Below are positions 6,148 through 24,853 of a stretch of 64,000 nt of DNA, one piece after another. The stretch's first letter is position 1; the number at the start of each line of letters is the position of its first letter. The notes below the pieces were generated by a model. That model was not told the DNA's origin. It was given only the letters and a program-made list of their open reading frames with translations, and did not search any database. The stretch is from a virus: IMG/VR virus record IMGVR_UViG_3300047476_001246; one strand, given 5' to 3'. A program made the translations under genes and the position numbers.

Positions 6148-6978
6148 TTAGGTCCAAAGTGCTTGACGAATTTTAATTAGACGAATCATCATCTCTTCGT
6201 CCTCTTTTGTATACTTATCTTCGATTGCTTGAGTGGCGTCTAGTGCTTGGCGGCTCGCCTCAAGCTCTTCCTCCGTGCGATCTTCGAAGTCCAACAAGTC
6301 TGCCCCATTCTTTCTACGCTGTTCACAGTAGGCGCTCCAACCTCCGGCATCGTGTGGATCCGGGCGATTGGGGTAAACTTCTGTCCACCACTTATAAAGT
6401 TCAAGAATTTCCTGTGCAGCCCGGGCCTGATAAGTGGGCTCGGCTAGATGCTTTTTGTCTTCATCCAAGAATTCTTCGTTGGTAAGCTCCATTTGCCACG
6501 CCAAGCAATCAAGTCCGGCTTGAGGGCAGCGCCAGGTGCGCCAACGGAACCAACCGGTGGCCCAGAATGGTGCGTCATACTTTGCTTTGGCGTCTTTGTC
6601 GGCCCAGGCAATGTGCCACCAAGCCAACTCTACTTCAACAAAATCTCTAAGTTCGTTAAAAAGACATGGGAGAAAACGATTGCCAACGTCACACCAAGTA
6701 CCAGGGGCAATATCACGAGGGTGAGCAGTGAGTGCGTGGGTTCGAGTAACGAATCGATTGTTGATATAATATTTGAGATCATACAGTTTATCCGGAATAT
6801 AGAATACAACGGTTTGTAGGTAGTCCAGCCCTGTGTCGGCCAACCAGTAGCGGATGGGATGTCGTGATTCGGCAGCTTCACGCCACTCGCGCCAGCCACG
6901 TGAAGTAAGAGCACCTGGGCTTGGTGTGCCGCGGAGCCAGTCTGCAAATTTGCTGCAAGTCCAATAATGATTAGGCAT
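6148..6978 (-). CDS. Hypothetical phage protein (Trp-rich)
   Basis: 276-aa ORF packed among co-oriented genes. Confidence 0.75.
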   Translation of the reverse strand: MPNHYWTCSKFADWLRGTPSPGALTSRGWREWREAAESRHPIRYWLADTGLDYLQTVVFYIPDKLYDLKYYINNRFVTRTHALTAHPRDIAPGTWCDVGNRFLPCLFNELRDFVEVELAWWHIAWADKDAKAKYDAPFWATGWFRWRTWRCPQAGLDCLAWQMELTNEEFLDEDKKHLAEPTYQARAAQEILELYKWWTEVYPNRPDPHDAGGWSAYCEQRRKNGADLLDFEDRTEEELEASRQALDATQAIEDKYTKEDEEMMIRLIKIRQALWT

Positions 6979-7315
6979 TGGTTTTCTTTCGGTTGTTGCT
7001 AAAAGTTTCTACATCAATTATAGCACTTTCGAGAGTTTTTGCATAGTTCAAAGCTTGCTGTTTGGACATATGAATATCATTGTAAGTTTCGATATATCCA
7101 CGAGTTAACAGAGTCCAAATGTTTTGCCAACGATTACGGCTCCACCAATTGGTTTTGGTTTTAACGTACACTCGTGCCCAGATTCCGGTTTCCTCAGCCT
7201 CAATGTTTAATTCGTGATCTGATCCACACCCACAACTGCAAGGAACAACGTAAAACTTACTGTCGCCCCAATCGTGTGTTTTTAAGATACCTTCGGCTGG
7301 CTTTTCTACTTCCAT
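6971..7315 (-). CDS. Hypothetical protein
   Basis: Start re-assigned to MEVEKP, downstream of GAGG. Confidence 0.6.
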   Translation of the reverse strand: MEVEKPAEGILKTHDWGDSKFYVVPCSCGCGSDHELNIEAEETGIWARVYVKTKTNWWSRNRWQNIWTLLTRGYIETYNDIHMSKQQALNYAKTLESAIIDVETFSNNRKKTNA

Positions 7316-7909: not shown

Positions 7910-8320
7910 TTAGTTAATTTTAGTTTGCCGCTCTGCTTCGTGTGTATCACACAATGTGCGTATCCATCCGCCATTTCTTTGACTGCCGGGGACACCACAT
8001 TCTTCACAGCTACAATCTGCCCACACTTCTGCCATACGTACCATTCCGCGAACAGTATCGTCACCGCCGTCGTAATAGAATCGAAGGCCACCAAATTTTT
8101 CTTTGATCTGTGCAGCTACCACCTGCGGCACTGCTGCGCCGCGACCGTACTTTTCAAATTGTTCATTTTTCCAATCTATGTGGCTTTGGATATTAGCACA
8201 TAGTTTTTCCAAGATTGGGTACCACCCCGGCCCACAGGCAAATCCGCCATATCGCCCCTCAAAGATTTTTGGATACTGCTCTTCCATGCGCTTAACAAAT
8301 ACATCATATTCGTCAATCAT
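7910..8320 (-). CDS. Phage hypothetical protein (QIKEKFGGLRFY, CEECG)
   Basis: Recognisable phage hypothetical motif with zinc-knuckle C-terminus. Confidence 0.75.
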   Translation of the reverse strand: MIDEYDVFVKRMEEQYPKIFEGRYGGFACGPGWYPILEKLCANIQSHIDWKNEQFEKYGRGAAVPQVVAAQIKEKFGGLRFYYDGGDDTVRGMVRMAEVWADCSCEECGVPGSQRNGGWIRTLCDTHEAERQTKIN

Positions 8321-8556
8321 TCTTCAACTCCAAAATGTTTTTGTGTATTAACCACCGCTGCGGATAGACCATCGTTGAATCCAAGATTGTTTCTTTCTGC
8401 AACCTCGTCTGTAAGTACTGCTCCACGAATACAAGCGATACATTCCTGGATAATCAACTCAGCAAAGAATTCTATTTCTTTGTCTGTGGCTTCCTGATTG
8501 TCTAGGGCAATATATAAGCCAGATCGTTCAACCAGTTCTCGAATTCGTTCGTTCAT
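8317..8556 (-). CDS. MNERI...HFGVE small paralog family protein
   Basis: Shares N- and C-terminal motifs with 9087..9305 and 11492..11773. Confidence 0.7.
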   Translation of the reverse strand: MNERIRELVERSGLYIALDNQEATDKEIEFFAELIIQECIACIRGAVLTDEVAERNNLGFNDGLSAAVVNTQKHFGVEE

Positions 8557-9086
8557 GTTTTGCTGACCTCACAGAAATATACCTTATTGCCCACATAGAA
8601 TGAATTTAATTTTTCGCATTCAGTTGCCACAGTGCTATGGGCAAATATCCATCCAAATAACATACCAACTAAAAAAATTAAGATAGCTCCGAGTATATTG
8701 TTCATTCTTCAACTCCATATTCTGTATAAAGTCGACCCAACTCTGCTCGTACTCGTTCTGCCATGGGACGATACTTTGCAGGATGAATAGGATGATACAC
8801 CCATCCCTGACCGCCCCATATCTTGCTACTATCTAACAGTCTATCCAAATCTGCTAGCAGTTGGAATCTAGGATCTGCCCACATAGCTTCCGCTTGTTTG
8901 TTCATTGCGTTTCCTTGAACAGTGGTATTCCGTCGGTCAAGTGTCTAATATATTCTAAATTAGTTGGGAAAGTATCGAGTGTGCCTCGATGGCGCTGAAT
9001 ACTTAGTTCAAATGGTTCCGGTCGTTCCAGACCATAGAAAAACATTTCTGTGGCACCTTCTTCTAACTGTTTTTTAAAATATTCGT

Positions 9087-9305
9087 TCACGATTCAACTC
9101 CGAAATGTTCGGCGACACGACAGATGCGGTCAATCACTTCAGTAATTCTACCATCACCTGGTTCGGGAAGTTCTCGTCCAAACACATCCATACACTCCAA
9201 GACTACCAGTCCTGCTAATTTATTAGCAAAGTCAGCATCAATGTGTTTGTTGCCTGGAATAGTTTTTCCAGCCTCTATCATTAGTTCGGTAATTCGTTCG
9301 TTCAT
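9087..9305 (-). CDS. MNERI...HFGVE small paralog family protein
   Basis: Paralog of 8317..8556. Confidence 0.7.
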   Translation of the reverse strand: MNERITELMIEAGKTIPGNKHIDADFANKLAGLVVLECMDVFGRELPEPGDGRITEVIDRICRVAEHFGVES

Positions 9306-10176
9306 TTAAATCTCCACATATTTAAGTTTAAAGTTGTCGGCTCTGGCTTCGTAGTCAATATAACCACGCGGATTACACACGATACGAGTAGTACCAATCA
9401 TGTAGTCAAAGTCCTCGTGAGTATGACCGTGCGTCCACAGTTTAATTTGTCGTCGATCTAAAATCCAGTTGTCCATGTCTGAGCTGTATGCGCCATTCAT
9501 AATATACTCAGTCTTGTAGCGCGGGTGAGTGCTAGCTTTGCTCGGCGCGTGATGCCCGCAAACCACAGTAGGTAGTCCCGGATGCATGGCCAGTGCTTCG
9601 TCCAAGTTACGACGGAAACGATAATGATCCTGTACTGAATCCTGCGGCAGAAATCGGCCACCGGCAGTAGGGCCAGTATTTTTAATTTGTCTATAATCGT
9701 TCATTACTCCAAGGATATGACTCATTGTGACAGGGTCTTCTCCATTCATGTCAGTCCATAATGTACCACCAAAGAACAGCACACCATTGATAATGCGCCA
9801 CTCGTTGTCTAGAATGTGGAGGTTGTGAATATCACCGAATGTGCCTTTGATAATTCGGTATGTTTCGGCAAAGTCGCCGTGGTAGGATTCATGATTGCCG
9901 GTGATATAAATTACTTGCGGGAATCGGTCGCAGCAACGGTTAATGAAATCTACATATCGTTTTGCACGAGTACGAACGGAACTTGTAGCCATAACAATCT
10001 CTGCATTTTCATCGTATGCAAAGTCTTTAAGTTCGCTGGCAATAAGAATATCCCCACCGAGGATCAAAACATCCGCGTTTTCGTCATTGGCAAAATCTAG
10101 ATCGCCAAACTCAAGGTGAAGTCATCTAAAGATCCGAGCAAATAGCTGCTCGGACCTTGTTTCCTTTCTGGCTCAT
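9306..10176 (-). CDS. Calcineurin-like metallophosphoesterase interrupted by a 10-nt gap (bypass candidate or pseudogene)
   Basis: RBS AAAGGA and ATG at 10176 give MSQKGNKVRAAICSDL*; removing 10 nt restores SDLHLEFGD...GGDI, GNHE, HHAP and HGHTH motifs. Confidence 0.8.
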
Positions 10177-10310: not shown

Positions 10311-10997
10311 ATGAATATTTATTGTAAATCCAATAACCCTTCTGGGTATTATGTCTACGCATACTTACGAAGTAAAACATCTAAAACTGCAAAAGCAGGA
10401 ACTCCGTACTATATCGGAAAAGGTAAAGGCAAGAGAGCTTGGGCACCTCACACAAATGTTCGGGTGCCAAAAGAAAGTGCTAACATAGTAATTTTGGAAC
10501 AAAATTTAACAGAACTTGGTGCATGGGCAATTGAGCGTAGAATGATCCGTTGGTATGGTCGCAAGTATTTGGGCGAAGGTATATTACAGAATCGACTCGA
10601 AGGTGGCGATGGTGGTGGTATGCCTGGCAAGCATAATGGTATGTTTGGTAAAACTCACACAGATGCCGTTAGAAAAATTTTATCAATAAATGCTAAAAAG
10701 CGGTTAACTGGCAAATCTTACGAAGAAATTCACGGCGTCGCCAAAGCAGAAACACTTAAACAGGATCGCTCATTGAAACTTAAAGAATACTTAAAACTGA
10801 ATCCTGAACTACGAAAAGGATCAAACAACAGTAATGCAAAATCATACGAATTCGTTTCGCCGGACAATACGGTGTATCAAGTACACGGAGAATTACGAAA
10901 ATTTTGTAAAGAACATCAACTCGAACTTACTGCAACTATTAATTTGTTAAAAGAAAGAAGAACTGAATACAAAGGCTGGCGTGCAAGATATTTGTAG
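10311..10997 (+). CDS. GIY-YIG (Seg-like) homing endonuclease with NUMOD3-type motif
   Basis: YYVYAYLR...PYYIGKG; GKHNGMFGKTHT; oriented against its neighbours. Confidence 0.8.
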   Translation: MNIYCKSNNPSGYYVYAYLRSKTSKTAKAGTPYYIGKGKGKRAWAPHTNVRVPKESANIVILEQNLTELGAWAIERRMIRWYGRKYLGEGILQNRLEGGDGGGMPGKHNGMFGKTHTDAVRKILSINAKKRLTGKSYEEIHGVAKAETLKQDRSLKLKEYLKLNPELRKGSNNSNAKSYEFVSPDNTVYQVHGELRKFCKEHQLELTATINLLKERRTEYKGWRARYL

Positions 10998-11010
10998 TCC
11001 TTCTTTGAGA

Positions 11011-11454
11011 TTATTTCCGTGCAAGTTGCTCTACTTTTTTGATTGCTTCTGGAGTAGTTTCTTCCAATTGTTCTTCCGCCACATCTTGCTCACCATGACG
11101 AATACTTCCGTCCTTCATCAACTTCAAATTGAGATTGTATTGTTTATTGTCGTGCTTGATTTTATTCATGCGACCTGCTTTGAAACCTTTGGCAAAGTAT
11201 TGTTTATAGATACCACCATGCTGACTATGCCAGTGGTTAATAGTCATTGCTCGTTCTAATGTAGCACCATCGGCAAGACTTACCCCTTTTGTGAAACCAT
11301 CTTCTTGTGCCATCTTGGCAATTTCTGGACTGAATCCTTCATCGTCATCGCCGCCGTTGAAACCATCTGGTGCAAATTCATTCAAGCCTTCTGCTACGCT
11401 TTTTTGGGCGTTTTCAATCAAATTGATATAATCACGAATAGATTTGTTGTTCAT
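11011..11454 (-). CDS. Hypothetical acidic protein, probably late
   Basis: ATAAATA promoter near 11473-11479 plus AGGAG RBS. Confidence 0.7.
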   Translation of the reverse strand: MNNKSIRDYINLIENAQKSVAEGLNEFAPDGFNGGDDDEGFSPEIAKMAQEDGFTKGVSLADGATLERAMTINHWHSQHGGIYKQYFAKGFKAGRMNKIKHDNKQYNLNLKLMKDGSIRHGEQDVAEEQLEETTPEAIKKVEQLARK

Positions 11455-11491: not shown

Positions 11492-11773
11492 CTATTCAAC
11501 TCCGAAATGTTCTTTAATCTGATTAGATTTAGTTTCTACTGCCACTTGCCAACCTGTGTCAAAATATTCATCCTTGTCTAAACTGTACATTATTGTAGTG
11601 CCCGGTGGACGAGGATTATTATTTTCTACAATACTTAAACATTCACGAACAATCAACTCGGCGAATTTGTCTAAAAAGTTGACCTGAGTTTCCCAAGAGT
11701 TATTTTGTCCACTGGGATATGCGGCTGTAGATTCCGCTGCCTTGGACCAAAGTTCTCGAATTCGTTCGTTCAT
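11492..11773 (-). CDS. MNERI...HFGVE small paralog family protein
   Basis: Paralog of 8317..8556. Confidence 0.7.
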   Translation of the reverse strand: MNERIRELWSKAAESTAAYPSGQNNSWETQVNFLDKFAELIVRECLSIVENNNPRPPGTTIMYSLDKDEYFDTGWQVAVETKSNQIKEHFGVE

Positions 11774-13401: not shown

Positions 13402-13477
13402 TGGTTGCGGGAGGAGGAATCGAACCTACCATCTGAGAGCTTATGAGACTCCCGTGCGACCACTACACTTTCCCGCG
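13402..13477 (-). tRNA. tRNA-Met(CAU), initiator-like
   Basis: Cloverleaf, loop CUCAUAA, C1:A72 mismatch, encoded CCA. Confidence 0.9.
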
Positions 13478-13873
13478 ATTGATCTGTTGGGGCTTATCGT
13501 CCCCGGATGTCCGTACCTTAGAGCGTCCTCTAAGTTCACTAGTAAATTCTAGCCATATCAACAACTACAGACCGGACTATTCTTTATTTAAATCGTTTTA
13601 GGATTTGTTTAATCTTCCATTTGATGTAATAAGGTATTTCACGCAATGGAATAGCAAACATTACACACTCCTATTTTCTCTACGGAAAGTCAAGTATTCA
13701 TCAAACGCCACTGCCACCCAGCCGCAGAAAGCCATGAAATAACCACTAATGGCCATACTGTTATTGGCACCATACGCTGCTACTATATTTAGAATACACA
13801 TCAGTACAATCACAAATGGCAGACCTACTCGAACATATTTCAACATTTCAAACTCCTTGAAAATAAAAAGTTT

Positions 13874-13947
13874 TGGCTCCGGTGGAGGGAATCGAACCCC
13901 CACTAACGGTTTTGGAGACCGTCGCACTGCCATTATACTACACCGGA
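13874..13947 (-). tRNA. tRNA-Trp(CCA)
   Basis: Loop CUCCAAA; CCA end. Confidence 0.93.
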
Positions 13948-14305
13948 ACGGATCATTTGTTATCGTTATTAACGATATTGCTCAACATTGTTTCGCGTCG
14001 TTCTTGCATTTCGCGAACTGTTTCTTCGTTTTCTAACTGACTCAAATTGATAGAATATATAACCCAGACGCCACCAGCAAAAAACGATAACACAAACAGA
14101 TTAAAAAGTGTATCTGCATCCAACTGAAATAATGCTACTAACACAATCGGGATCATGGTAGCAATAGCTAGCATCCCGGCGGTACGACCTGCTGCACGAA
14201 CTTTGATATTCATCGACAACTCCTACTTAGTTAATATACTTCATATTATACTTGAAGTGCTATTTTCTGTCAACCACTGATTTTTTGTTGCTATTTTGTT
14301 AACTT

Positions 14306-14395
14306 TGGCGGAAGCGGTGAGATTCGAACTCACGGTACCTTTCGGTACGTCTGTTTTCAAGACAGGTGCAATCAGCCAGGCTCTGCCACACTTCC
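14306..14395 (-). tRNA. tRNA-Ser(UGA)
   Basis: Loop CUUGAAA; long variable arm; G73. Confidence 0.93.
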
Positions 14396-14752
14396 GTATA
14401 ACTTACCGTGTTCTTCTCTATGACAATTTGAGCATAAAAGAACACATTTATCTAGTTCAGCAAAAAGTTTTTCTCGCTTGAACTTTCTTAAACCTTTAGG
14501 ATCTTTTTGCTTAGGATCCTTATGATGAAACTCTAATGCGCCGCGATACTTGTTATATCCGCAATGCTCGCATTTTCCGCCTTTATAGGCTAATGCCTCA
14601 TCTCTTACTTGTAATCTATATTGTTCTTGCTGTATTCCAAAACAAGAATAACATTGACTTTTCATTTTGCCATAAAACTTTTTGGGATCTTGTTCTCCAC
14701 AAGTTTCGCAATGATGTAATTTTTTAACAATACCTTTTAATGGCGAGCCCAT
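14372..14752 (-). CDS. HNH homing endonuclease inserted at tRNA-Ser
   Basis: CEHCG...LEFHH.DP...CVLLCSNCHREEH; own AGGAG RBS and ATAAATA; flanked by a 15-bp repeat of the tRNA-Ser 5' end. Confidence 0.85.
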   Translation of the reverse strand: MGSPLKGIVKKLHHCETCGEQDPKKFYGKMKSQCYSCFGIQQEQYRLQVRDEALAYKGGKCEHCGYNKYRGALEFHHKDPKQKDPKGLRKFKREKLFAELDKCVLLCSNCHREEHGKLYGSVAEPG

Positions 14753-14796
14753 AAGTTTAATCTCCTTAAACTTATTTATCATTTTATTGTAAATTA

Positions 14797-14823
14797 TAAT
14801 AAACCGGACTCTGCCACACTTCC
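14797..14823 (-). pseudogene. Orphan 5' fragment of tRNA-Ser (acceptor 5' strand plus part of D-arm)
   Basis: GGAAGTGTGGCAGAG at 14809-14823 is identical to 14381-14395. Confidence 0.75.
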
Positions 14824-15074
14824 AAATTACTTGGACCAGGTCATAACAAACAATGTTCGATCCTGATCCCACTTAAATGCTACGCCGATATTATAGAGAA
14901 TGCTACAGTCATCGTAGGCCCAAGTTGCATATCTTGCTCCTACGCACTGTTTTAACCAATCCTCTACAGTAATTAAACTTTTGACCCAATCAATTTGACA
15001 AGAATCAAAATTGGGCCACGGGATAGTTGCATGATATTGGAATTTGTGCCAATCCACTAACATGCAAATATTTA

Positions 15075-15152
15075 TGGAGCATCGAGCTGGATTCGAACCA
15101 GCGGCTTTAGAGTTTTGCAGACTCTTGCATTGGGCCACTCTGCCATCGATGC
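15075..15152 (-). tRNA. tRNA-Cys(GCA)
   Basis: Loop CUGCAAA; U73. Confidence 0.93.
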
Positions 15153-15159
15153 ATAATAC

Positions 15160-15234
15160 TGGTCCGGCGTGAGGGAATCGAACCCCCATTAAGAGTTTAG
15201 AAGACTCCTGTCCTATCCGTTGAACGAACGCCAG
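15160..15234 (-). tRNA. tRNA-Arg(UCU)
   Basis: Loop CUUCUAA. Confidence 0.92.
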
Positions 15235-15241
15235 TATTACT

Positions 15242-15319
15242 TGGTGGGCCTTGTTGGAGTCGAACCAACTACCACCCGATTATGAGTCGGATGCTCTAAC
15301 CACCGTGAGCTAAAGGCCC
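15242..15319 (-). tRNA. tRNA-CAU, probably Ile2 (lysidine type)
   Basis: Loop CUCAUAA; GGGCCUU acceptor resembles Ile2 bodies. Confidence 0.85.
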
Positions 15320-15327
15320 TACAAACT

Positions 15328-15410
15328 TGGTACCCGAGGCCGGACTCGAACCGGCACGCCATAAGCGGGAGATTTTAAGTCTCCTGTGTCTACCATTCCA
15401 CCACTCGGGC
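15328..15410 (-). tRNA. tRNA-Leu(UAA)
   Basis: Loop CUUAAAA; variable arm. Confidence 0.93.
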
Positions 15411-15419
15411 ATTCTAAAC

Positions 15420-15496
15420 TGGTCGGAGATGCAGGGATCGAACCTGCGACCTCTCGCTCCCAAAGCGAGCGCACTACCAGGCTGTGCTAATCTCCG
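15420..15496 (-). tRNA. tRNA-Pro(UGG)
   Basis: Loop UUUGGGA; C1-G72. Confidence 0.93.
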
Positions 15497-15738
15497 TTTT
15501 AATCTTCTTCATCACTTGCATTAAAATATGCAATTATTTTACTACGAGCTTCATCTTCTGTCAAGGCCGGAATAGTCACAGTAGCCAGTCCGTTCTTGAT
15601 TTTTATATCAAATGGAACTACTCCACGCGGCAACCACCCATCTTCAACGGGTACAGTAATGGTAAACTCCTTCAAGTTCATCATTCTTTCTATGGCTCGT
15701 TGTGCTAAATCACTTGGATGTGGCATAATAAAATCCTT

Positions 15739-15812
15739 TGGTGCCCTTTGACAGAATCGAACTGCCAATAGATGATTACAAATCAACTGTTATACCATTT
15801 AACTAAAAGGGC
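15739..15812 (-). tRNA. tRNA-Thr(UGU)
   Basis: Loop UUUGUAA. Confidence 0.92.
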
Positions 15813-15819
15813 AAAAACT

Positions 15820-15911
15820 TGGCGGAGCGTATTGGATTCGAACCAATGATACCCTTATGAGGTATGCTTTCTTAGCAGGAAAGTGCCTTCGACCAACTCG
15901 GCCAACGCTCC
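15820..15911 (-). tRNA. tRNA-Ser(GCU)
   Basis: Loop CUGCUAA; long variable arm. Confidence 0.93.
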
Positions 15912-15954
15912 AGTAATCTTACTTATTAAGTATATTATACAGCATTGCTTCTTT

Positions 15955-16626
15955 TCAAGCAACTATTTTTTTACGTATTGTAGTCCAAAGTTGATCAATT
16001 TGATTGGCATAATCAGCTTCTTCAGGAACTACATCTACAAATTCTCCATATCTAGCCCCCGTAAAGTTTTTTTCAACTCGAGTAAAGGGCAACTCTTCTT
16101 CTAACATTTTTCCTCGAAAACGGTCATAGGCTTGATTAAAAACCGACGTCCATAATTCTAATCCTCGACCTGCTGCAATGTTTATACCAAGTTCGGGTAT
16201 GGCAAAATGATGATCCCACAATGCAGTCCAATCATCATTGATGTTGTTGATATAATCAACTACTCTTTTGGTCAAAACAAATGCATCAGATTCGATGTTT
16301 ACAATTTTATCAAAATTGTATTTTGCAGCATAATCTGTTGCTGTTTGCATACTTCTAAACAAACCTGGATACTCAAACGGTGCCGGGGATCCGAGGTTAT
16401 CATTGTGATGAAACAGTACAACATTGTGATTGGGCTGCACATCAGGTAAATCGTAAATCACTTCGCAATCAATATCCAGCGGTAGCGTTGGTGAACCATC
16501 GTCGACTATAAGTATTTGATCAAACTCTAATCCTACGGTACTGTGATAGTCCAACCAACGCTTCCATCTGTGGTTCCATAGTCCTTGCGAATCAGCAAAG
16601 CTAGCACAAAATAGCAAGGTCTTCAT
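15955..16626 (-). CDS. Glycosyltransferase-like (GT-A) hypothetical protein
   Basis: ILIVDDGS and IESD (DxD-like) motifs. Confidence 0.6.
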   Translation of the reverse strand: MKTLLFCASFADSQGLWNHRWKRWLDYHSTVGLEFDQILIVDDGSPTLPLDIDCEVIYDLPDVQPNHNVVLFHHNDNLGSPAPFEYPGLFRSMQTATDYAAKYNFDKIVNIESDAFVLTKRVVDYINNINDDWTALWDHHFAIPELGINIAAGRGLELWTSVFNQAYDRFRGKMLEEELPFTRVEKNFTGARYGEFVDVVPEEADYANQIDQLWTTIRKKIVA

Positions 16627-17228
16627 TACATTGCAGGACCATTGCCATTGCGAAAACCTACTGTACCACCTTCGGCTTCGATACGCTTGATAACATCTTC
16701 AAACAAGATAGGTGCAAAGTCTGTCTGTTCAACGCAGACGCAATGATAGCGAGGGTCAATCTTTTCTTTTACTCCCCACTCCACGAACTCTGCGGTAGAA
16801 CTGGCTCGACGCATTACACGGTTAGCATGCAAGTGTCCGTGAATGTTAACACCAAACCTACCAAGGCTGTCCTCATGAATAGGAATATGACTTAAAATCA
16901 TTCCGTTCATGACATGATATGCCCGAAGCTCACGAAAATACTTGCGGTACTCGTCGTCGCGGAAGATGTCGTGGTTGCCTCTAATTAACACTTTGTCGCC
17001 GTTTAAACGACTCAATGTTTCAAGGCTTCGACGATTGATAACAACATCGCCCAGGTGGTAAACTTTATCATTGGGTCTAACACGCTCGTTCCATGCTGCT
17101 ACCATAAACTCATCCATTTCCTCCGGGCTCTCCCAAGGGCGCAGTTTCGTCACTCCATCGTTCCGCATAAAGCGGCAAACACCAGCGTGACCAAAATGCG
17201 TGTCACTGACTAAAAACACTGCTGGCAT
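16626..17228 (-). CDS. Calcineurin-like metallophosphoesterase
   Basis: SDTHFGH, HLGDV, GNHD, SHIP, HGHLH; start at MPAVF with GGAG RBS. Confidence 0.92.
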   Translation of the reverse strand: MPAVFLVSDTHFGHAGVCRFMRNDGVTKLRPWESPEEMDEFMVAAWNERVRPNDKVYHLGDVVINRRSLETLSRLNGDKVLIRGNHDIFRDDEYRKYFRELRAYHVMNGMILSHIPIHEDSLGRFGVNIHGHLHANRVMRRASSTAEFVEWGVKEKIDPRYHCVCVEQTDFAPILFEDVIKRIEAEGGTVGFRNGNGPAM

Positions 17229-17241
17229 TTGGTTCTCCTTA

Positions 17242-17670
17242 TTAAAAATCTTCGCGAACTTCGCGAAACGAAGTAGGGTCTGCATCCGGGTTAGTATCGA
17301 CTTCAAAAGATCCACCGTAATAGCCGTTGTGGCTATTACGCACTTCAAAGTCAATATATCCGCGATCAGTTTTCAAAGTAAAGAAACCATCTTGGATAAC
17401 GTCCCATTCGTCCTCATCAGTTCGATTTTCGCCCCAACCTTTATCTTCTGCTCCGGTCACTAGTGCTCCACGCAGGATGTCAAAAGTATTACCTTCTCCT
17501 AGCACATTCACACCAGTCATGTGATTGATCCACACAGTATTGCAACAGTCTCCAGAAGTGTAGTAATGAAATTCCTGACCGTTGATTGTACGCACAATCA
17601 ACCGGTTATTGTCGTCATTCAGGAGAATGCTGTTAATACGCTCCCCTACTAAATTTTTAAACACGCTCAC
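17242..17670 (-). CDS. Phage hypothetical protein (DCC...NGYYGG)
   Basis: ORF with GGAGG RBS. Confidence 0.7.
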   Translation of the reverse strand: MSVFKNLVGERINSILLNDDNNRLIVRTINGQEFHYYTSGDCCNTVWINHMTGVNVLGEGNTFDILRGALVTGAEDKGWGENRTDEDEWDVIQDGFFTLKTDRGYIDFEVRNSHNGYYGGSFEVDTNPDADPTSFREVREDF

Positions 17671-17684
17671 AGCACCCTCCTTTC

Positions 17685-17972
17685 TTATATATCAGCTATT
17701 TGCACTTTTAATATTGCAGCGGTTAAGTCTGCTTCATTTTTTACACCGATCCAATAGGTCGGACGATCACGCCGTGGTTGTTTGTAATAGCCCCATGGGG
17801 CGTCTTGATAGACTCTTTTCCACCATATGTTCCATGGTTGAACTCCGCTGTACATCTCCGACAATGCTCGCTTTACGGCATCGGACTCTCGGCCTTCTTT
17901 GTTGAATCTAAGGGCATGAGTAAAGCCGTATTGTGCTAATACATACCTACGATTCAATTTAATTACTTTCAT
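17685..17972 (-). CDS. Hypothetical protein, close paralog of 20092..20379
   Basis: Shared RRYVLAQYGFTHALRFN...PWGYYKQPRRDRPTYWIGVKNEADLTAAIL. Confidence 0.75.
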   Translation of the reverse strand: MKVIKLNRRYVLAQYGFTHALRFNKEGRESDAVKRALSEMYSGVQPWNIWWKRVYQDAPWGYYKQPRRDRPTYWIGVKNEADLTAAILKVQIADI

Positions 17973-17974
17973 TA

Positions 17975-18289
17975 TTATGATACTACCAACTCTTTAGCCG
18001 GGTATTCAATCTTGCCTTCATACTCGAGCTGGCTGCGCTCAAACTCGGTCAGGTAATCGTCTTCAACAACTTCCCAAGCCAGAATATGTTCGCGATAGTA
18101 GCCACCATTTCTTTCGATCTGCGGAGCCACTTGATCAACTAATTCTGCTGCAACACCGACATTGATGTTTTTAACCACATATTCGCAACCGCCCTTGGCT
18201 TTCCAATACTCAGGAACTTGGCCTTCACCGTCCCAATCATGGGCACCGTAGTTTTCGTAGACTTGGGTAATAATAAGCAGTTTAGACAT
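17975..18289 (-). CDS. Phage hypothetical protein (TQVYENYGAHDWDG...YWKAKGG)
   Basis: ORF with AGGAG RBS. Confidence 0.75.
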   Translation of the reverse strand: MSKLLIITQVYENYGAHDWDGEGQVPEYWKAKGGCEYVVKNINVGVAAELVDQVAPQIERNGGYYREHILAWEVVEDDYLTEFERSQLEYEGKIEYPAKELVVS

Positions 18290-18477
18290 TTCGGCGCTCC
18301 TGATTAGATATTAAACCAATTCAACAAGTCATCTTCAACTTGCAAAAAACCAGCAGTATAACCAGCACCTACCCAATATTTGATTGAACGATATCGACGA
18401 CCGTCTTGTCCAATCCAGGAATCGCTAATAATTGGTGCTCGTTTCATTCGCTGCTCCTTGTCGTTCACTATACATAC

Positions 18478-18506
18478 ATTATAGCAAAATGGGTCTTTTT
18501 GGTCTA
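18478..18506 (-). promoter_or_regulatory. Sigma70-type early promoter, representative of a repeated family
   Basis: TAGACC-17-TATAAT with extended TG; related copies at 46267-46295, 47823-47851, about 18761, 41098, 51876, 52254, 61790. Confidence 0.75.
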
Positions 18507-18829
18507 CCAAAATACGTGTTGCTATTCAAGCAACAAAATCGTACACATAATTGGCGCCAACTTTACTAGGCTTTACCTTAAAGTCAAACTCGCGGCACAG
18601 AGTAGAAAACACACGACGGGCGGTGTTTTCGGTCACATCTTCAAGAAACAAGGAGCCGTTGTAAAATTCAGCACGGCCTTCGTTAAGCACTGGGGAGATT
18701 AGGTCAAGTACTCGGGATTCGAATGCCATTTTGCTACTCCTTGTTAATTACTATACTTGTATTATAGCAAAATGGCAATTTATGAGCAACCAAAATGTTT
18801 TGTTGCTAAAAAGCAACAAATGTTGCATT

Positions 18830-19429
18830 TTATGTAATACTTGCTCTATTAGCAACAACTTGGTCTGCTAGGCCGTATGCAACCGCTTGTTCGGCGCTCA
18901 TAAAGTAATCACGCTCCATGTCTTCGCGCAGTTCATCATAGGTCTTGCCTACGCTGTTGTGCTTGACATAGATACCAGTAAGGTTGCGCTTCATCTCCAG
19001 GATCTCACGCACTTGGATTTCCATGTCTGTGGCTTGACCTCGAGCACCACCACTTGGTTGGTGAATCATGTGTCTAGCATTGGGCAGAATAAAACGCTTG
19101 CCTGCTGCACCTGCTTGTGCCAACAGCGAACCCATTGAGCAGGCTTGTCCCATCACAATAGTATTCACATCTGGTCGAATGAACTGCATAGCATCATAAA
19201 TTGCCATGCCAGCTGTCACTGATCCACCTGGGCTATTGATCCATAGGTTAATATCCCGATCCGGATCTTCACTTTCAAGATACAGCAATTGTGCAACAAT
19301 CAAATTGGCCATTTGATCATGTACTTCTCCCTCTAGTAGGACCACACGCTCTTTTAGCAATCTGCTATAGATATCATAGCTACGTTCGCCTTTACTAGTT
19401 TGTTCTACAACCATGGGCACTAATGGCAA
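18830..19429 (-). CDS. clpP: ATP-dependent Clp protease proteolytic subunit
   Basis: [36 protein letters not shown]. Confidence 0.98.
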
Positions 19430-19446
19430 TTTATTCTCCTTGATAA

Positions 19447-19899
19447 TTATGGATTTACTACAAATTCAGTTAACTCTAATACACCTAGATCTTCAAAATA
19501 ACCCGATGCTGGGCTTGATACTTTTACTAACTTGCCTGTGTCTGAGTAAAACTCTACAGTGTATGCGTCGCAGGCATTCTCTTCCCAAATTTTTCTAGCA
19601 GCTTCGGCAGCACCACGATCTCGAAATACCCACAGTATTTCACCTCGTCCGGTTTCGTGTCCAAATGTGTCGCCGGTACGATAAGTCATCCAAAGAACAT
19701 ACACACGGTCGCCTGGGCCCACGTCAAAGTCTGTGGTAAATTCTTCAATATCGTATCCGAGACCCTGCCAACCAGCTAAAGTTGATAGCCCGACTGAGCG
19801 AACATCGTATTCCCATTCACGGTGCCAATCACCGTATTCTTCGCCATCCCAGTAATCTTCCAAACATCGCTCATGATAGTTTACATACAGCTTCATCAC
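19447..19899 (-). CDS. Hypothetical protein
   Basis: ORF track. Confidence 0.65.
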
Positions 19900-20091
19900 A
19901 ATCTCCGTTTTTTCCAGTTATAATCTGGACCTACATCAGCTACACCCATTTTAGTTGCATTGTCTGGCAATTCGCTACACATAGTCACAAACTGTCTACC
20001 GCTATTACGCAAGTCTTGGCAGTAATCGAGTGCTTCTGTCATGATAGGAAATTCTTTGCCATACGATTGTTCACCGTAGGTCCAGTACACT

Positions 20092-20379
20092 TTAAACATC
20101 GTTCATCTGCGCCATTAATATTGCAGCAGTTAAGTCTGCTTCGTTTTTTACACCGATCCAATAAGTAGGACGATCCCGGCGCGGCTGTTTGTAATAGCCC
20201 CATGGTGCCGTTTGATTGGCCCATTTCCACCAGATGTTCCATGGCGAAACACCACTGTACATTTGAGTTAATGCTTTTTTTACGGAATCAGACTCTCGAC
20301 ATTCGTTGTTAAATCGAAGGGCATGTGTAAAGCCGTATTGCGCTAACACGTATCTGCGAGTTAATTTTACAACTTTCAT
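20092..20379 (-). CDS. Hypothetical protein, paralog of 17685..17972
   Basis: Start re-assigned to MKVVKL with GGAGG RBS. Confidence 0.75.
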   Translation of the reverse strand: MKVVKLTRRYVLAQYGFTHALRFNNECRESDSVKKALTQMYSGVSPWNIWWKWANQTAPWGYYKQPRRDRPTYWIGVKNEADLTAAILMAQMNDV

Positions 20380-20458
20380 CACACCCTCCTTTCTAGTATA
20401 ATAACAAAATGGTTCTTTACGGGCAAGAAAAATGCCCATAATGGGCATTTTAAAAACA

Positions 20459-20533
20459 TGGAGCGGGTGACAGGGATCGAACCTGCGACGAACAGCTTGG
20501 AAGGCTGACACTCTACCACTGAGTTACACCCGC
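20459..20533 (-). tRNA. tRNA-Gly(UCC)
   Basis: Loop CUUCCAA. Confidence 0.94.
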
Positions 20534-20543
20534 ATTTGAAACT

Positions 20544-20618
20544 TGGCGGTCCCAAGGGGGATCGAACCCCTGTGTCCGGATAGACAGTCCAGCATAATGA
20601 CCATTATATGATGGGACC
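20544..20618 (-). tRNA. tRNA-Asp(GUC)
   Basis: Loop CUGUCUA; G73. Confidence 0.9.
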
Positions 20619-20623
20619 TTGTT

Positions 20624-20700
20624 TGGCTGACCAGGTAGGGCTCGAACCTACGACATTCTGATTAACAGTCAGACGCAACTACCAACTGTGCTACTGGTCA
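20624..20700 (-). tRNA. tRNA-Asn(GUU)
   Basis: Loop CUGUUAA. Confidence 0.93.
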
Positions 20701-20716
20701 ATAAAACTTATAAATC

Positions 20717-20790
20717 TGGTAGCCCGTGACAGAATCGAACTGCCGTAACCGCCGTGTAAAGACGGAGTTCTACCATTAAACTAACGGGCC
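20717..20790 (-). tRNA. tRNA-Val(UAC)
   Basis: Loop UUUACAC. Confidence 0.92.
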
Positions 20791-21221
20791 TTATATTCTT
20801 GCAAATATCTATTGCGTTTTGTATCTTTTTTATATCTATTGCCTTGTCCTTTACTACCAAAGTTTTCTGTTTGCGTATGGCAGTTAGGACAAAGTAGCCT
20901 TAAATTACTAGGGAAATTATTATCACTATCACCATCAATATGGTCTAATTGTAACATAAGAGGCTTTTTATTCCAAATAGAACTTTGCCCACATTCCTCG
21001 CATATTTCCCCGCGTGTCTCAATTAAGTACTTTTTAAGAGCACGAGATCCATCACTTACTTTACCTTCTAAAATTCTAGGAATTGTTTCATTGTACCACT
21101 TAAACAAGCCTTGACAATTATTATCACAAAACTTGTTTATTTTACTATGCCCCCACAGATTTTCTTTTCTGCAGTGCAAACAGTTATATTTCCTATTGCT
21201 ACCTTTAATTCCGCTCGGCAT
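20781..21221 (-). CDS. HNH endonuclease
   Basis: CEECG...LQLDHIDGDSDNN...NLRLLCPNCH. Confidence 0.88.
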   Translation of the reverse strand: MPSGIKGSNRKYNCLHCRKENLWGHSKINKFCDNNCQGLFKWYNETIPRILEGKVSDGSRALKKYLIETRGEICEECGQSSIWNKKPLMLQLDHIDGDSDNNFPSNLRLLCPNCHTQTENFGSKGQGNRYKKDTKRNRYLQEYKAR

Positions 21222-21271
21222 AACATAGACCTCCTATTATATTTAGCAAAGGTCTATGTTTTTGATTTATT

Positions 21272-21358
21272 TGGTGGGTGCTGATGGTAATGCTCCACGT
21301 GCCTTGACTTCCCTACCTTTAGGAATGGTTTTACAGACCACCGTAGGGGGCAACACCC
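21272..21358 (-). tRNA. Atypical tRNA-Tyr(GUA)-like RNA lacking a normal D-arm
   Basis: Acceptor GGGUGUU/AGCACCC-ACCA, anticodon loop CUGUAAA, no D-arm, T-loop AGCAUUA. Confidence 0.65.
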
Positions 21359-21367
21359 ATTTAACTT

Positions 21368-21443
21368 TGGTGGAGGTTATCGGACTCGAACCGATCACCC
21401 TTAGCTTGCAAAGCTAATGCTCTCCCAGATGAGCTAAACCCCC
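21368..21443 (-). tRNA. tRNA-Ala(UGC)
   Basis: Loop UUUGCAA; G3:U70. Confidence 0.94.
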
Positions 21444-21446
21444 AAA

Positions 21447-21698
21447 TTAATTTTCTCTAACATGTTTGGCGTCAACACAAGTTTCGCCTTTGAACACATA
21501 CACATCTGAATCTACTCGTAGCTGTTCAAACACTTGATTGTTCACGCAAATATATGGATCTCGATGATTTTGCATGTAGTAAAAGACTGCATAACCAATA
21601 CCAGCTAATATCATTAGTATAGGAATATACTTAAGATATTTCACAATTTCGGGCATTGCACCCAAAATTTGCGGTAAGTTTTTTAACAGGTCTTTCAT
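21447..21698 (-). CDS. Small membrane protein
   Basis: One TM helix; TAAATA 6 nt upstream of the ATG. Confidence 0.65.
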   Translation of the reverse strand: MKDLLKNLPQILGAMPEIVKYLKYIPILMILAGIGYAVFYYMQNHRDPYICVNNQVFEQLRVDSDVYVFKGETCVDAKHVREN

Positions 21699-21771
21699 AC
21701 TCGTATTTAACCATTCTGAAGCACACTATGCCACGCTTTGAACCTGGACTCTTAGTAATGTGCTTTAGAAT

Positions 21772-22664
21772 GTGCTAACGCTGAGATTACACGTTAGCCA
21801 CAAGCACCTCTAGCATTATAGTACGCCTTGCGAGCATACCTTCTCTAGACATCCACTAAATCCTGTTATCACACAGTAATCTAGTCTGCTTGCAGCATCG
21901 CCGTTTTTATGGTCAGGCAGTAGACCAGTCGTTACGTGCTACTCTGTACCTTATTTTCCGTTGAACTTGCGGTCCATTAAGCCTTGCGAGCTACGAAACT
22001 TCTAGTACAAATTAGTGTCACCTTGCGAGCTTCACTAAACTCAATTGGCTCACGCCTTGAGTGTTAGATGCTTTTCGCACATAACCGGAGCAGTCTTTGC
22101 ATTTTTGTAATGATAGTTGGATTCGAACCAACTGCCGTCAGATTAAAAAGTCTGTCGCTCTACCGATGAGCTATATCAACCTACTACGATGTGCTGCTCC
22201 AGTTGCTGAATAAAGTTTTGCTCTACCCAATACAACACACCATGTACCTTTTGCCTGCCGGCTACTCAGTAGTCCTTCGCGATTAGTGTGACCCCGCCGT
22301 TGCCGACAGCCCCACCGACCACTTGTACTGCACACAAGCCCTTGGCTGCGAAACCTCGGACAAATGCACTACCCTTTCTCATACCAGTTAACTGATTGGT
22401 TTTGCAGTGAAGTCAGCACCACCTGTTACTTTCCTTGCACCCTGGTTCCCTTGCGGGCCAGTCGATACAAGTTCTTTCCACTACATCAGCTTCGCTGTTA
22501 AATCCACCCGTCTTATAAGTGAACGCTACCTCACGGTAGTGAGCAGGCTTGTTTAAGCGGACCATTGCTGGCGCAGGCGTGTAGGACGCTGCTGCTTTGG
22601 GTCACTCACGTGACTTATCCTTAGTTAGACGGCGAACCGTCTAGCAAGAGATTAAACTCCCTAA
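21772..22664 (-). ncRNA. GOLLD RNA (giant ornate RNA) with embedded tRNA-like domain
   Basis: About 890 nt non-coding, many GNRA/UUCG hairpins (CUCGCAAGG, ACCGUGAGGU, GACGGUUCGCCGUC), 3' end ...GUAAUCUCAGCG, inside a phage tRNA cluster, own TTGACA-17-TATTAT promoter at 22671-22699. Confidence 0.8.
22109..22180 (-). tRNA. tRNA-Lys-like domain inside GOLLD (8-nt loop CUUUUUAA, no CCA)
   Basis: D-arm, T-arm GUUGG-UUCGAAU-CCAAC, only 5-bp acceptor. Confidence 0.7.
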
Positions 22665-23745
22665 GTATCTATAATAAAACAAATTCAAATTCTTGTCAAC
22701 TACTTTTTTATCATATTGAAACACACTGACTACATTGGCAAACCCGTTTGGGATTTACAACCGTTGTCTGGGCGGTGATCCGCTTACAATGCATTTCAAT
22801 ATGGCCGGTCTGTCCTGTTGTTACAGTCCATCTAGGCTGAACAGCATTTGCAACTGACTGAACGGATACTCTTAATACCCATCTTTAGAACTGACCGTCT
22901 ACCATATTGAAGCACACTATCACAAACTACAGGCACGACTAAGAGCCCGGGAAAAAGACAATGTGCTTCAATATGGCAACAATGTTGACTACCCTTCTAG
23001 CCCACGGTCAAGTTCTGCTAGTCGCTCTAGGGTCATTGGCGGTACTGTTTGCACAGGCAGACCCAATCATTGTTTACCATATTGAAGCATACTCCGGCAA
23101 GGACTCGCACCTCGCTCCACCCTGTCCCAAACTACTTACGGATACGAGATTCAGTCTTCCGGACGACTTCATCTTATCTTACCGCTTTCACCCAAGGTGC
23201 ATGCGAACGTCATACACTACAGAATGTGCTTCAATATAGATCCCACCGTTAACGACAGCATTTGTCCTAGCTTTATTTTGAGTCGGTTAATGCACGGTGG
23301 GAACACATGCCGACCTGTCGTATTTTCGTGTACTGTTGCTTGCCCCAAGGGTTAGGTACCTACCTCAGCGACTCATACTGGTCGACGACAACGACCGCTG
23401 CTCTTAAATTACATCTAGTACAAACAAATGCTTGGGGAATCGAACCCCGCCTGCTCCCCTTTCGGCAACTCATTCACCCCTGCAAGGGTTTCAACTCTGC
23501 GTACTCGGTTCACCGTGCTAGCCAATACACTTAGCAGCCTGTCATAGTTCATTGCAGTGCCCTATGAGCAGTTTTGTACTATATAGAAACACACTGCCGA
23601 TTAGTTATCAAGAAACGACCTGATGATCAAGTCAGGCTCAGTATGTTTTTATATGCAGTCTCGTTTAGCGTCCGAGACTGCCAAGACGGGGTCTGTAGAC
23701 TGCTGACAATTTATCACATTATACGCCGTCAGCAAAGGCGAGCTT

Positions 23746-23841
23746 TGGGTGCAGGATCAAGGGGTCGAACCTCGACGCGACATATCTAGAATAACCACGT
23801 TGAGCCTGCTCAACATGGCGTCGCCCAGTCCACTTCCTGCA
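23746..23841 (-). ncRNA. tRNA-like RNA with acceptor stem, T-arm and CCA but no anticodon loop
   Basis: UGCAGGA/UCCUGCA-C-CCA; GAGG-UUCGACC-CCUU; central long hairpin CCAUGUUGAGC-AG-GCUCAACGUGG. Confidence 0.65.
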
Positions 23842-23845
23842 TAAC

Positions 23846-23920
23846 TGGTACACCGTAGGAGAATCGAACTCCTCTTACCTGCGTGAAAGGCGGGTGTCCT
23901 AACCGATAGACGAACGGTGC
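23846..23920 (-). tRNA. tRNA-Glu(UUC)
   Basis: Loop CUUUCAC. Confidence 0.93.
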
Positions 23921-23928
23921 ATAACTTT

Positions 23929-24003
23929 TGGCGTCTCTGGATGGAATCGAACCACCATCACAAGTTTCGTAGACTCGTATCCTATCCGTTGAACGACAGA
24001 GAC
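23929..24003 (-). tRNA. tRNA-Arg(ACG)
   Basis: Loop CUACGAA. Confidence 0.92.
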
Positions 24004-24004
24004 T

Positions 24005-24200
24005 GTGTATTCTTGCTTAGGCCACGTGGTTCCACCCATCGCCCCTATGCTGGAGTTGTTGCCCTGTCCGAACACTAATGCGGTTTGCTACGTAGTGTCC
24101 ACGCTGCTATGTTGTCTGCTTACGTCTGCGCTGTCGGTGCCATAGCCACCGGACTGTCTCATAGTCAACGCCAACTTTATGGATAGTTGGAATCCGGAAT
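24005..24200 (-). ncRNA. Putative structured ncRNA, copy 2 of the GGACAGGGCAACAACUC family
   Basis: Shares core with 12950..13160; promoter-like sequence at about 24204-24234. Confidence 0.5.
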
Positions 24201-24655: not shown

Positions 24656-24656
24656 G

Positions 24657-24733: not shown

Positions 24734-24771
24734 ATTTTTAAATTGTACTAAAAACTACCTTTATTGTCAAC

Positions 24772-24846: not shown

Positions 24847-24853
24847 TAATACG

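Follow-up and report, generated by a model that had tools for sequence, protein, structure and literature searches.

A short translational hop proposed for a viral metallophosphoesterase gene beside a mobile GIY-YIG endonuclease cassette

An interrupted phosphoesterase gene next to an endonuclease gene

The DNA analysed here, referred to as the window, is a stretch of 64,000 nucleotides (nt) from a virus (IMG/VR virus record IMGVR_UViG_3300047476_001246). Its minus strand carries a metallophosphoesterase gene that is split by a short gap within the codons of its first catalytic motif, and the gene that diverges from it on the plus strand encodes a free-standing homing endonuclease of the GIY-YIG type. 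The features of the locus are listed below. The codons that border the gap are called take-off and landing codons after the translational hop that is proposed to join the two coding segments.

10238-10210, minus strand: predicted sigma-70-type promoter, TTGACA-17 nt-TACAAT, 11/12 consensus matches; part of the cassette and presumably functional
10188-10184, minus strand: Shine-Dalgarno sequence AAGGA, upstream of the leader ATG
10176-10174, minus strand: ATG start codon of the leader open reading frame (ORF), from sequence reading
10176-10129, minus strand: first coding segment, 16 codons, MSQKGNKVRAAICSDL, from the frame-0 translation
10158-10129, minus strand: conserved RNA helix; the 3′ arm (codons C-S-D-L) ends with the take-off codon and the 5′ arm lies in the leader extension
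10131-10129, minus strand: take-off codon CTT, encoding Leu in D-L-H; all 20 gapped alleles have CTN here
10128-10122, minus strand: gap TAGATGA, proposed to be untranslated; its UAG, in the A site at take-off, is 10128-10126
10124-10122, minus strand: UGA in the landing frame, immediately 5′ of the landing codon, from sequence reading
10121-10119, minus strand: landing codon CTT; past take-off no CTN triplet comes before it, whichever the frame
10118-9306, minus strand: second coding segment, HLEFGD... to the stop, 270 codons; begins with CAC (10118-10116) and ends with TAA (9308-9306)
10311-10997, plus strand: free-standing gene for a GIY-YIG homing endonuclease of 228 aa, transcribed away from the phosphoesterase gene; assigned from the predicted fold and invariant residues
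10119-11110, approximate: mobile block, 97-100% identical to loci L081 and L101; from a sliding identity profile, left edge within ~30 nt

A sequence-only reading of this locus had described a frame running from ATG 10176 to a CTT followed by TAG, and every one of these elements is present at the positions given above. It had also stated that skipping 10 nt to the second CTT restores the SDLHLE motif and a metallophosphoesterase of 286 aa. Translation confirms this: the 16 and 270 codons join into 286 aa and the motif reads SDLHLEFGD, while the open frame from the landing codon alone comprises 271 codons (P0001). The second segment carries the remaining metallophosphoesterase motifs GD, GNHE, HHAP and GHTH. 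Family searches assign the post-gap part to Pfam PF00149 (Metallophos) with E = 2.2e-7, and the gene to PHROG 1649 with E = 4e-47. The motif order DxH, GD, GNHE, H, GHxH is complete, with the DxH regained only when both segments are joined. The joined product, ...AAICSDL-HLEFGDLDF..., has the canonical N-terminus of intact relatives, for example P0004 MKIAVCSDLHLEFGDLDL.

The relatives of the gene are mostly intact, with a length of ~279 aa, and all 80 of the 80 IMG/VR loci fetched by protein similarity start with MKIA..SD.HLEFG. The first 7 residues of the leader form an N-terminal extension that has no counterpart in intact alleles. At the ancestral start position the window has GTC, and the gapped allele L095 has CTG. 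Thus the ancestral start is lost, and the leader ATG must be the working start.

Past the UAG, frame 0 reads MTSP and then TGA, and the +1 frame reads AGA TGA, with the TGA at 10124-10122. The earlier statements that amber readthrough meets TGA four codons on, and that a +1 shift meets TGA, are both borne out by these frame translations. Frameshifting by +1 or -2 in the window was rejected, since the shifted frame contains a TGA, and a hop from GAU to GAU inside the gap was rejected as leading into the wrong frame.

Gene callers begin the protein past the gap (P0003 and P0008, 253 aa), and exactly this is proposed by a reading with an internal start at TTG 10067, the 16 upstream codons being a leader peptide or a regulatory upstream ORF. 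The helix could then be a translational control element. Such a start is very improbable. The candidate positions and codons (TTG, GTG) vary among lineages, no Shine-Dalgarno sequence was seen at them, and the stretch between gap and start is under protein-level constraint, with no insertions or deletions except for one codon in L098. The product would be without the first beta-strand and without both the Asp and the His ligands of motif I; from what is established for the calcineurin-like fold, it should be inactive. Genes of this type are truncated by gene callers, as in the 253-aa calls, or would be flagged as pseudogenes.

Gap classes, matched codons and a conserved helix

Gapped alleles were gathered by DNA pattern scans and from the neighbours of nuclease relatives. 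The DNA patterns required HLEFG downstream, which is a bias against decayed copies. Two loci are duplicates (L096 of L084, L097 of L092), two pairs of loci are listed jointly (L113/L123, L117/L121), and the pattern matches L088, L093, L094, L099, L100, L102-L108, L115, L116, L118 and L124-L136 were dropped as chance. There are 20 distinct gapped alleles, and in all of them the gap lies between the Leu and His codons of motif I (D-L-H). Arranged by the length of the proposed hop, they are:

10-nt hop, CTT TAG ATGA CTT: the window, L081 (JGI), L082 (Logan run) and L101 (JGI)
9-nt hop, CTT TAG TGA CTN: L084, L098 and L085, landing on CTT; L090 and L092, landing on CTC; L095, landing on CTA
6-nt hop, CTT TGA CTT: L109
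6-nt hop, CTT TAG CTA: L110, L114, L119, L122, L137 and L138
6-nt hop, CTT TAA CTA: L120
6-nt hop, CTA TAG CTA: L113/L123
6-nt hop, CTG TAG CTG: L117/L121

A search of homologues for the same or a similar gap, proposed as a check in the sequence-only reading, finds the identical gap in three other loci (L081, L082, L101) and CTN-stop-CTN in 16 more diverged alleles. The same reading had offered a recent inactivating insertion as the alternative. In that wording the alternative is refuted, as the gap is common to independent assemblies and to deeply diverged cassette lineages.

The take-off and landing codons of the 20 alleles are CTT/CTT in 8, CTT/CTA in 8, CTT/CTC in 2, and CTA/CTA and CTG/CTG in 1 each. 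When the wobble base of the take-off codon is A or G, the landing codon has the identical base. All observed codon pairs should be compatible with Leu tRNA decoding of the E. coli type. A stop lies directly 3′ of the take-off codon in 20/20 alleles, and UAG, UGA (L109) and UAA (L120) are all represented. In 19/19 loci tested no CTN triplet of any frame comes between take-off and the landing codon, a count of modest power at such short gaps. Intact alleles have mostly Val codons at the position of the Leu take-off codon. With a CTT take-off codon, the IMG/VR scans turned up no gap lengths besides 6, 9 and 10 nt. A DNA search of curated phage genomes with the window locus gave no match, near or distant, and with the other gap classes gave short 3′-end matches only; no cultured phage with the cassette was found among them.

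The 6-nt form is the commonest among the relatives. Gaps of 6 and 9 nt keep the reading frame, whereas that of 10 nt shifts it. L138 has a window-type leader (MDQKGKGVRVAICSDL) and a short-loop hairpin, yet its gap is 6 nt. With L138 as a 6-nt sister that shares the leader and hairpin of the window, the 10-nt gap appears to be a derived expansion of a 6-nt in-frame stop-hop. Judged from the reading frames, only a hop, in which the Leu peptidyl-tRNA re-pairs at the second CTN, would yield D-L-H in every class.

Readthrough of the stop, by a suppressor tRNA or through use of TAG as a sense codon, would place 2-3 extra residues in the DxH metal-binding motif. In the 6-nt TAG class it would give a full-length protein with two extra residues, and the phage has a well-formed tRNA that could decode UAG, listed here with the main tRNA array:

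37649-37724, minus strand: tRNA with anticodon CUA, apart from the main array; Rfam tRNA score 59 bits (gathering score 29), labelled Pyl by ARAGORN
13402-28242, minus strand: array of ~29 tRNA genes, including tRNA-Leu(UAA) at 15328-15410 and tRNA-Leu(UAG) at 24352-24435

The CUA tRNA is a candidate phage amber suppressor, and any process relying on slow decoding of UAG would face competition from it. However, in the window the readthrough frame is the wrong one and ends in the TGA four codons later, and readthrough is impossible in the TAG-TGA class and in the TGA or TAA alleles. Of 106 long stop-to-stop frames in the window, 22 end in TAG, and strand coherence is no better when TAG is recoded; on these counts the phage does not appear to be globally recoded. 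Readthrough as an explanation for the family of gaps is most improbable. The phage tRNA-Leu(UAG) could read CUN codons.

A hairpin of 12 bp with one G-U pair had been noted at 10158-10129, and refolding gives the same structure: 10158-10147 pairs with 10140-10129 across a loop of 6 nt. The centroid energy is -19.3 kcal/mol (z = -2.3) and 5/200 shuffles fold equally well, which by itself is modestly unusual. The case for a hairpin beyond chance comes from the relatives, not from the window fold alone. In every gapped allele the 9 nt 5′ of the take-off codon, which encode Ala or Cys, Ser and Asp, pair with 9 nt of the leader extension; in the window class additional pairs involve the take-off codon itself. 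This 9-bp core is paired at 9/9 positions in 18 loci and at 8/9 in L120, despite differing arm sequences.

Pairing of the helix was scored with a register-anchored comparison of the two arms. Across 13 lineages 99.1% of positions are paired and 3/9 pairs are changed on both sides, i.e., show compensatory changes; 0/500 shuffles match this, and controls in which the arms are slid show 29-47% pairing. When arms are swapped among lineages the pairing falls from 0.989 to 0.834, with the observed value reached in 1/5000 swaps. Five leader positions distinguish L081 and L101 from the window; at one of them the stem survives the change through a G-U pair. Folding of the intact allele L083 revealed no such structure, and a downstream stem-loop of the take-off type was looked for and is not conserved. 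The 5′ arm has evolved to match a 3′ arm that is constrained by the residues it encodes, and this accounts for the odd N-terminal extension. Leaders loosely share M-x-x-K-G-x-x-V; these residues also encode a helix arm, and their conservation may therefore act at the RNA level. It is inferred that the helix stimulates hopping.

The stable hairpin abuts the gap, as it would if 6-10 nt were removed from the RNA by cleavage and religation at the hairpin. An Rfam search over the leader gave no family match, and we know of no system that excises 6-10 nt from bacterial mRNA. Assemblies made independently from JGI, Logan and ENA samples have identical gaps, which excludes a sequencing or assembly artefact. 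RNA-level removal and artefact, taken together, have the smallest probability of all explanations considered.

Two further observations concern the leader. In L084/L087/L089, contigs from three samples, the leader ATG is one base out of frame relative to L098 and the leader runs to a TAG lying across codons 3-4 of the main frame, with an internal ATG kept in the helix loop; translational coupling is possible in this lineage. On the opposite strand of the window, at 10133-10154 (plus), the helix followed by CCTTGTTTCC scores as terminator-like, a call made on that strand only. It could stop antisense transcription from entering the upstream region of the nuclease gene.

The mobile cassette and the state of the interrupted gene

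The homing-endonuclease cassette around the gap was missed in the sequence-only reading. Pfam, NCBIfam and PDB sequence searches with the nuclease ORF of the window named no family. The assignment rests on structure comparison with VIA-align and on conserved residues; Foldseek alone gave weak matches. The AlphaFold model has a pLDDT (predicted local distance difference test) of 85. Residues 3-95 match the folds of UvrC (1ycz; Z 7.0, root-mean-square deviation (rmsd) 2.5, 75 aligned residues), PD-T4-3 (Z 7.4), I-TevI (1ln0; Z 5.5) and T4 EndoII (Z 4.6), and residues 169-228 match the DNA-binding domain of I-HmuI (Z 8.1, rmsd 1.5). Invariant residues are Y14, Y16, Y18, Y33-Y34-I35-G36, R42, E75 and N94. 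The homologue in L085 passes TIGR01453 (group I intron endonuclease) with 59.5 bits, against a cut-off of 56.05 bits.

A divergent nuclease ORF is found 130-210 nt from the gap in 16 gapped alleles. These ORFs are homologous, most strongly in the C-terminal half, and promoter hexamers equivalent to those of the window lie upstream of the leader in other cassette classes also. Nuclease identity between cassette classes is just 31-45%, yet the translational signals are all kept. The nuclease is missing from 81/81 intact alleles found by phosphoesterase similarity, and its association with the gap has a Fisher p = 7e-16.

Alignment of the window with L081 and L101, and of L084 with L098, shows 97-100% identity from just past the nuclease gene to the gap. 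From there the identity decays progressively into the phosphoesterase gene, and on the far side it collapses to ~45%. This is how the profile should look after homing in which co-conversion starts at a break close to the gap. The gap appears to mark the right-hand edge of a mobile GIY-YIG cassette made up of the nuclease, the promoter, a new start with a short leader, the hairpin and the insert.

Some gapped alleles have lost the nuclease. L095 and L097 share flanks, with and without the nuclease, respectively. L092/L097 and L114 have no nuclease gene and retain the leader, the helix, the gap and the whole phosphoesterase gene. In L120 (8795-8929, minus strand) the nuclease is reduced to an N-terminal stub of 44 aa with the GIY and YIG motifs, and the adjoining gapped gene is whole. 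As the nuclease is lost from these alleles there is no renewal by homing, yet the signals and the whole gene persist.

The reverse situation is also seen. A nuclease relative in L112 (~2390-2501; 56% identity) lies beside an uninterrupted allele that reads AGT GAC CTC CAT ATC, and one in L139 (~1879-2001; 43% identity) beside an uninterrupted allele that encodes SDCH. Both alleles are without leader extension or helix. Their recoded motif codons suggest that substitution is another route to immunity. In L087, in addition to the cassette nuclease at 8254-8892, two GIY-YIG-like ORFs (6393-7115 and 10363-11049, both minus strand) lie on either side of the gapped gene, within 2.5 kb of it (<=2.5 kb), and this locus looks like a hotspot for homing elements.

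The frames downstream of the gap are whole in 19/19 judgeable gapped alleles, with 247-306 codons and all motifs present. Scans that used the arm and gap alone found no decayed copy. Sampling via nuclease relatives, which is independent of the state of the gene, gave 5 gapped, 2 intact and 0 decayed alleles among 7 loci with DNA. The median ratio of non-synonymous to synonymous substitution rates (dN/dS) is 0.17 for pairs of gapped alleles and 0.16 for pairs of intact alleles, and is 0.05 between the window and its nearest intact allele, L083. Thus the marks of a pseudogene are not found: none of the 19 alleles has a second lesion and dN/dS (0.05-0.17) is like that of intact genes, although the mobility of the cassette limits the power of this comparison. 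Within classes the dN/dS of the gene body is 0.08-0.15; these values were rejected as proof of selection, since the identity profile reveals recent transfer of the cassette. A recent transfer leaves most pairs with little power for detecting selection after the gap arrived. The sequence-only reading had asked for purifying selection on both sides of the gap; the downstream genes are indeed whole and have a low dN/dS, but most of this constraint may predate the arrival of the cassette.

Certain pairs are more informative. In L114/L119 and L119/L122, promoter and leader have 59% nt identity and the gene has 68-69%, and dN/dS of the gene is still ~0.2. In L084/L090 and L098/L090 the promoter/leader and the gene are about equally diverged, with dS saturated. 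Three observations weigh more than the bulk dN/dS: the presence of the signals across diverged classes, the pairs among L114, L119 and L122, and the nuclease-free alleles.

The main rival of a bypass is that a selfish cassette inactivates a dispensable gene. The stops would then be real, the frame would look whole through repeated homing into fresh alleles, and the signals would be kept for DNA-level reasons, e.g., the blocking of self-cleavage. In keeping with this, the cassette is mobile and was acquired recently relative to the divergence of the gene bodies, within-class dN/dS mostly predates the invasion, the DNA searches are partly biased toward intact motifs, and the phosphoesterase is an accessory phage gene. 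However, the absence of a second lesion in the 19 judgeable alleles speaks against gene killing, as do the whole genes and complete signals of the nuclease-free L092/L097 and L114 and the stub-only L120. So does the dN/dS of ~0.2 in L114/L119 and L119/L122, where the divergence of promoter and leader about equals or exceeds that of the gene. Immunity alone leaves unexplained the in-frame start, the promoter, the stop in the A site, the Leu codons with matched wobble bases, the absence of a premature CTN and the compensatory changes in the helix. The phosphoesterase family is also intact in thousands of phage sequences. Gene killing is thus considered unlikely, with bypass the best explanation.

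The proposed hop and known bypassing systems

The sequence-only reading had called the event a regulated bypass. Comparison of the 20 gapped alleles leaves, as the best-supported reading of the window, a bypass in which the ribosome leaves CUU, passes the stop next to it and lands on a matching CUU with the help of a hairpin; the word regulated finds no support. Based on the comparisons above, it is probable, if well short of certain, that a short translational hop keeps the gene working while the insert plausibly shields the cassette's own genome from the nuclease.

In the proposed mechanism ribosomes would start at ATG 10176, translate 16 codons and pause with the peptidyl-tRNA-Leu paired to CUU in the P site while the A site contains UAG, which is decoded slowly. 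By then the 3′ arm would be in the P and E sites and the exit channel, with the 5′ arm and the loop already emerged. The 9-12 bp helix could then re-zip behind the ribosome and draw the mRNA forward by about the hop distance (6-10 nt). The peptidyl-tRNA would leave CUU and re-pair with the first cognate CUN triplet, 10 nt downstream, and decoding would restart at CAC to give a single enzyme of 286 aa with SDLHLEFGD and the predicted junction peptide AAICSDLHLEFGDLDF.... The UGA before the landing codon would end translation by +1-shifted ribosomes in the window class, and suppressor readthrough in the 9-nt class. The hop and its efficiency are inferences; what the sequences show is the anatomy with its conservation and covariation, the movement of the cassette, the predicted fold of the nuclease and an undamaged gene. 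At the DNA level, the insert and the recoded codons of the helix arms probably destroy the endonuclease target in the cassette's own genome. With the target destroyed, the element could occupy a codon of a catalytic motif without killing the gene.

Several points weigh against this reading. Since the cassette is mobile, the intactness of the gene bodies and their low dN/dS may for the most part be older than each invasion. The HLEFG-dependent patterns are biased and the unbiased, endonuclease-based sample is small (7 loci). Nuclease relatives occur beside intact alleles (L112, L139), hence the gap is not obligatory. Independent changes are few, i.e., two matched wobble switches and three types of stop, and part of the conservation of the signals could reflect common descent or constraint at the DNA level. 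The nascent chain at take-off has 9-21 residues (in L084 only 9 codons are translated before take-off), which leaves nothing equivalent to the nascent-peptide signal of gene 60. When stimulators are lacking, synthetic stop-hops reportedly work at roughly the percent level. Finally, the CUA-anticodon tRNA that the phage itself encodes could decode UAG in competition with the hop.

Only a handful of systems with efficient programmed bypassing are known, namely T4 gene 60 with its topoisomerase homologues, the mitochondrion of one yeast and, as a candidate, phage Hau3. The closest parallel is the 50-nt translational bypass of T4 gene 60, which lies within a MobA homing-endonuclease element (Bonocora et al. 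2011, as cited in 10.1101/2022.08.31.505936). In both systems a conserved phage enzyme carries an insert where its codons are invariant, and this insert is physically linked to, and travels with, a free-standing homing endonuclease. Both have UAG (sometimes UGA) after the take-off codon, matched codons that tolerate wobble and a gap without premature landing triplets, and in both some lineages have lost or degraded the endonuclease and kept the gap (10.1101/2022.08.31.505936). The gene 60 insert has been proposed to guard against self-cleavage, and the insert of MobA has been shown to do so, according to the account in 10.1101/2022.08.31.505936.

The components are different. Gene 60 involves a topoisomerase, the HNH enzyme MobA, Gly GGA codons and ~50 nt, whereas here there are a metallophosphoesterase, a GIY-YIG enzyme in all classes, Leu CUN codons and 6-10 nt. 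The present alleles are also without a take-off stem-loop that holds the take-off codon in its 5′ side, without a Shine-Dalgarno-like element in the gap and without a long nascent-peptide signal. The likeness to gene 60 stem-loops claimed in the sequence-only reading needs a correction: since the 3′ arm is closed by the take-off codon, the helix sits behind the ribosome, in the manner of the 5′ stem-loop of gene 60. The gene 60/MobA family shares no sequence homology with the window system, which is analogous to it and not a member. It may be described as a miniature form of the same logic as T4 mobA/gene 60, with another gene, nuclease family, codon, gap length and set of structures. It would also be a second, independent route by which a homing endonuclease enters a catalytic-motif codon without an intron or intein.

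Exit-side mRNA pairing has been proposed to drive forward movement in gene 60 (10.1101/2024.12.09.627546; for the 5′ stem-loop, 10.1101/2022.08.31.505936). If the hop is real, the alleles described here would allow a direct test of this proposal (10.1101/2024.12.09.627546). They would form a natural series at one site, with gaps of 6, 9 and 10 nt, three stops, several codon pairs and helix variants, i.e., a ready-made mutational analysis. The element, at only ~45 nt, is suited to reporters, single-molecule work and cryo-electron microscopy.

A bypass of 10-nt (and 7-nt) inserts has been proposed for the terminase g6/7/8 of the Streptomyces phage Hau3, with the junction peptide seen by mass spectrometry in E. 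coli, and recoding rose about twofold when the gap was given a UGA in the +1 frame (PMC10732093). The likeness to the window lies in the 10-nt gap in a phage gene, the slow A-site codon and a proposed 5′ stem-loop stimulator, and the window gap naturally has UGA in the +1 frame. Unlike the window system, that of Hau3 has a rare sense codon, UUA, as the trigger, is tied to host development and proposed to be regulatory, has no homing endonuclease and is known from only three genes. Here there are a stop-codon trigger, a mobile cassette and 20 alleles with covariation in the helix.

The 6-nt class (CTT TGA CTT, CTA TAG CTA, CTG TAG CTG) is identical in design to synthetic stop-hops. The construct of Weiss et al. 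in 1987 reportedly went from CUU over UAG to CUA, which is the commonest natural form here. In the synthetic stop-hops, made in E. coli, one stop stands between matched codons, and a stretch of 9 nt thereby codes for a single amino acid (Weiss et al. 1987, as cited in PMC5009743). They are artificial, of low efficiency and without stimulators, whereas the alleles here are natural, conserved and have a covarying helix. According to a 2016 review, no natural occurrences of in-frame stop-hops were known, and shorter matched-codon counterparts have long been presumed (PMC5009743). The byp elements of Magnusiomyces capitatus mitochondria are different: they are GC-cluster-like, 27-55 nt in length and located in an organelle of a eukaryote, have an unassigned sense codon as their slow codon, and have no endonuclease gene attached (PMC5009743, 10.1101/2022.08.31.505936).

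A broader proposal, towards which we lean by a little more than even chances, is that the alleles represent a natural, widespread family of minimal 6-, 9- and 10-nt hops, including the first natural in-frame stop-hops. These would be driven mainly by the 9-12 bp exit-side helix and used by GIY-YIG nucleases as self-immunity inserts in catalytic-motif codons. The proposal would also imply that many of the phage genes now annotated as interrupted do yield a protein.

Other features of the window include two unusual RNA gene calls, a tRNA-like call with a 2-nt anticodon at 22107-22180 and a tmRNA-like gene flagged as permuted at 42698-43139. The phosphoesterase gene is flanked by small paralogous ORFs on the minus strand (8317-8556, 9087-9305 and 11492-11773). 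These share the ends MNERI... and ...HFGVE(E/S), have variable middles, and are found beside gapped alleles elsewhere as well, e.g., at 3582-3815 in L097.

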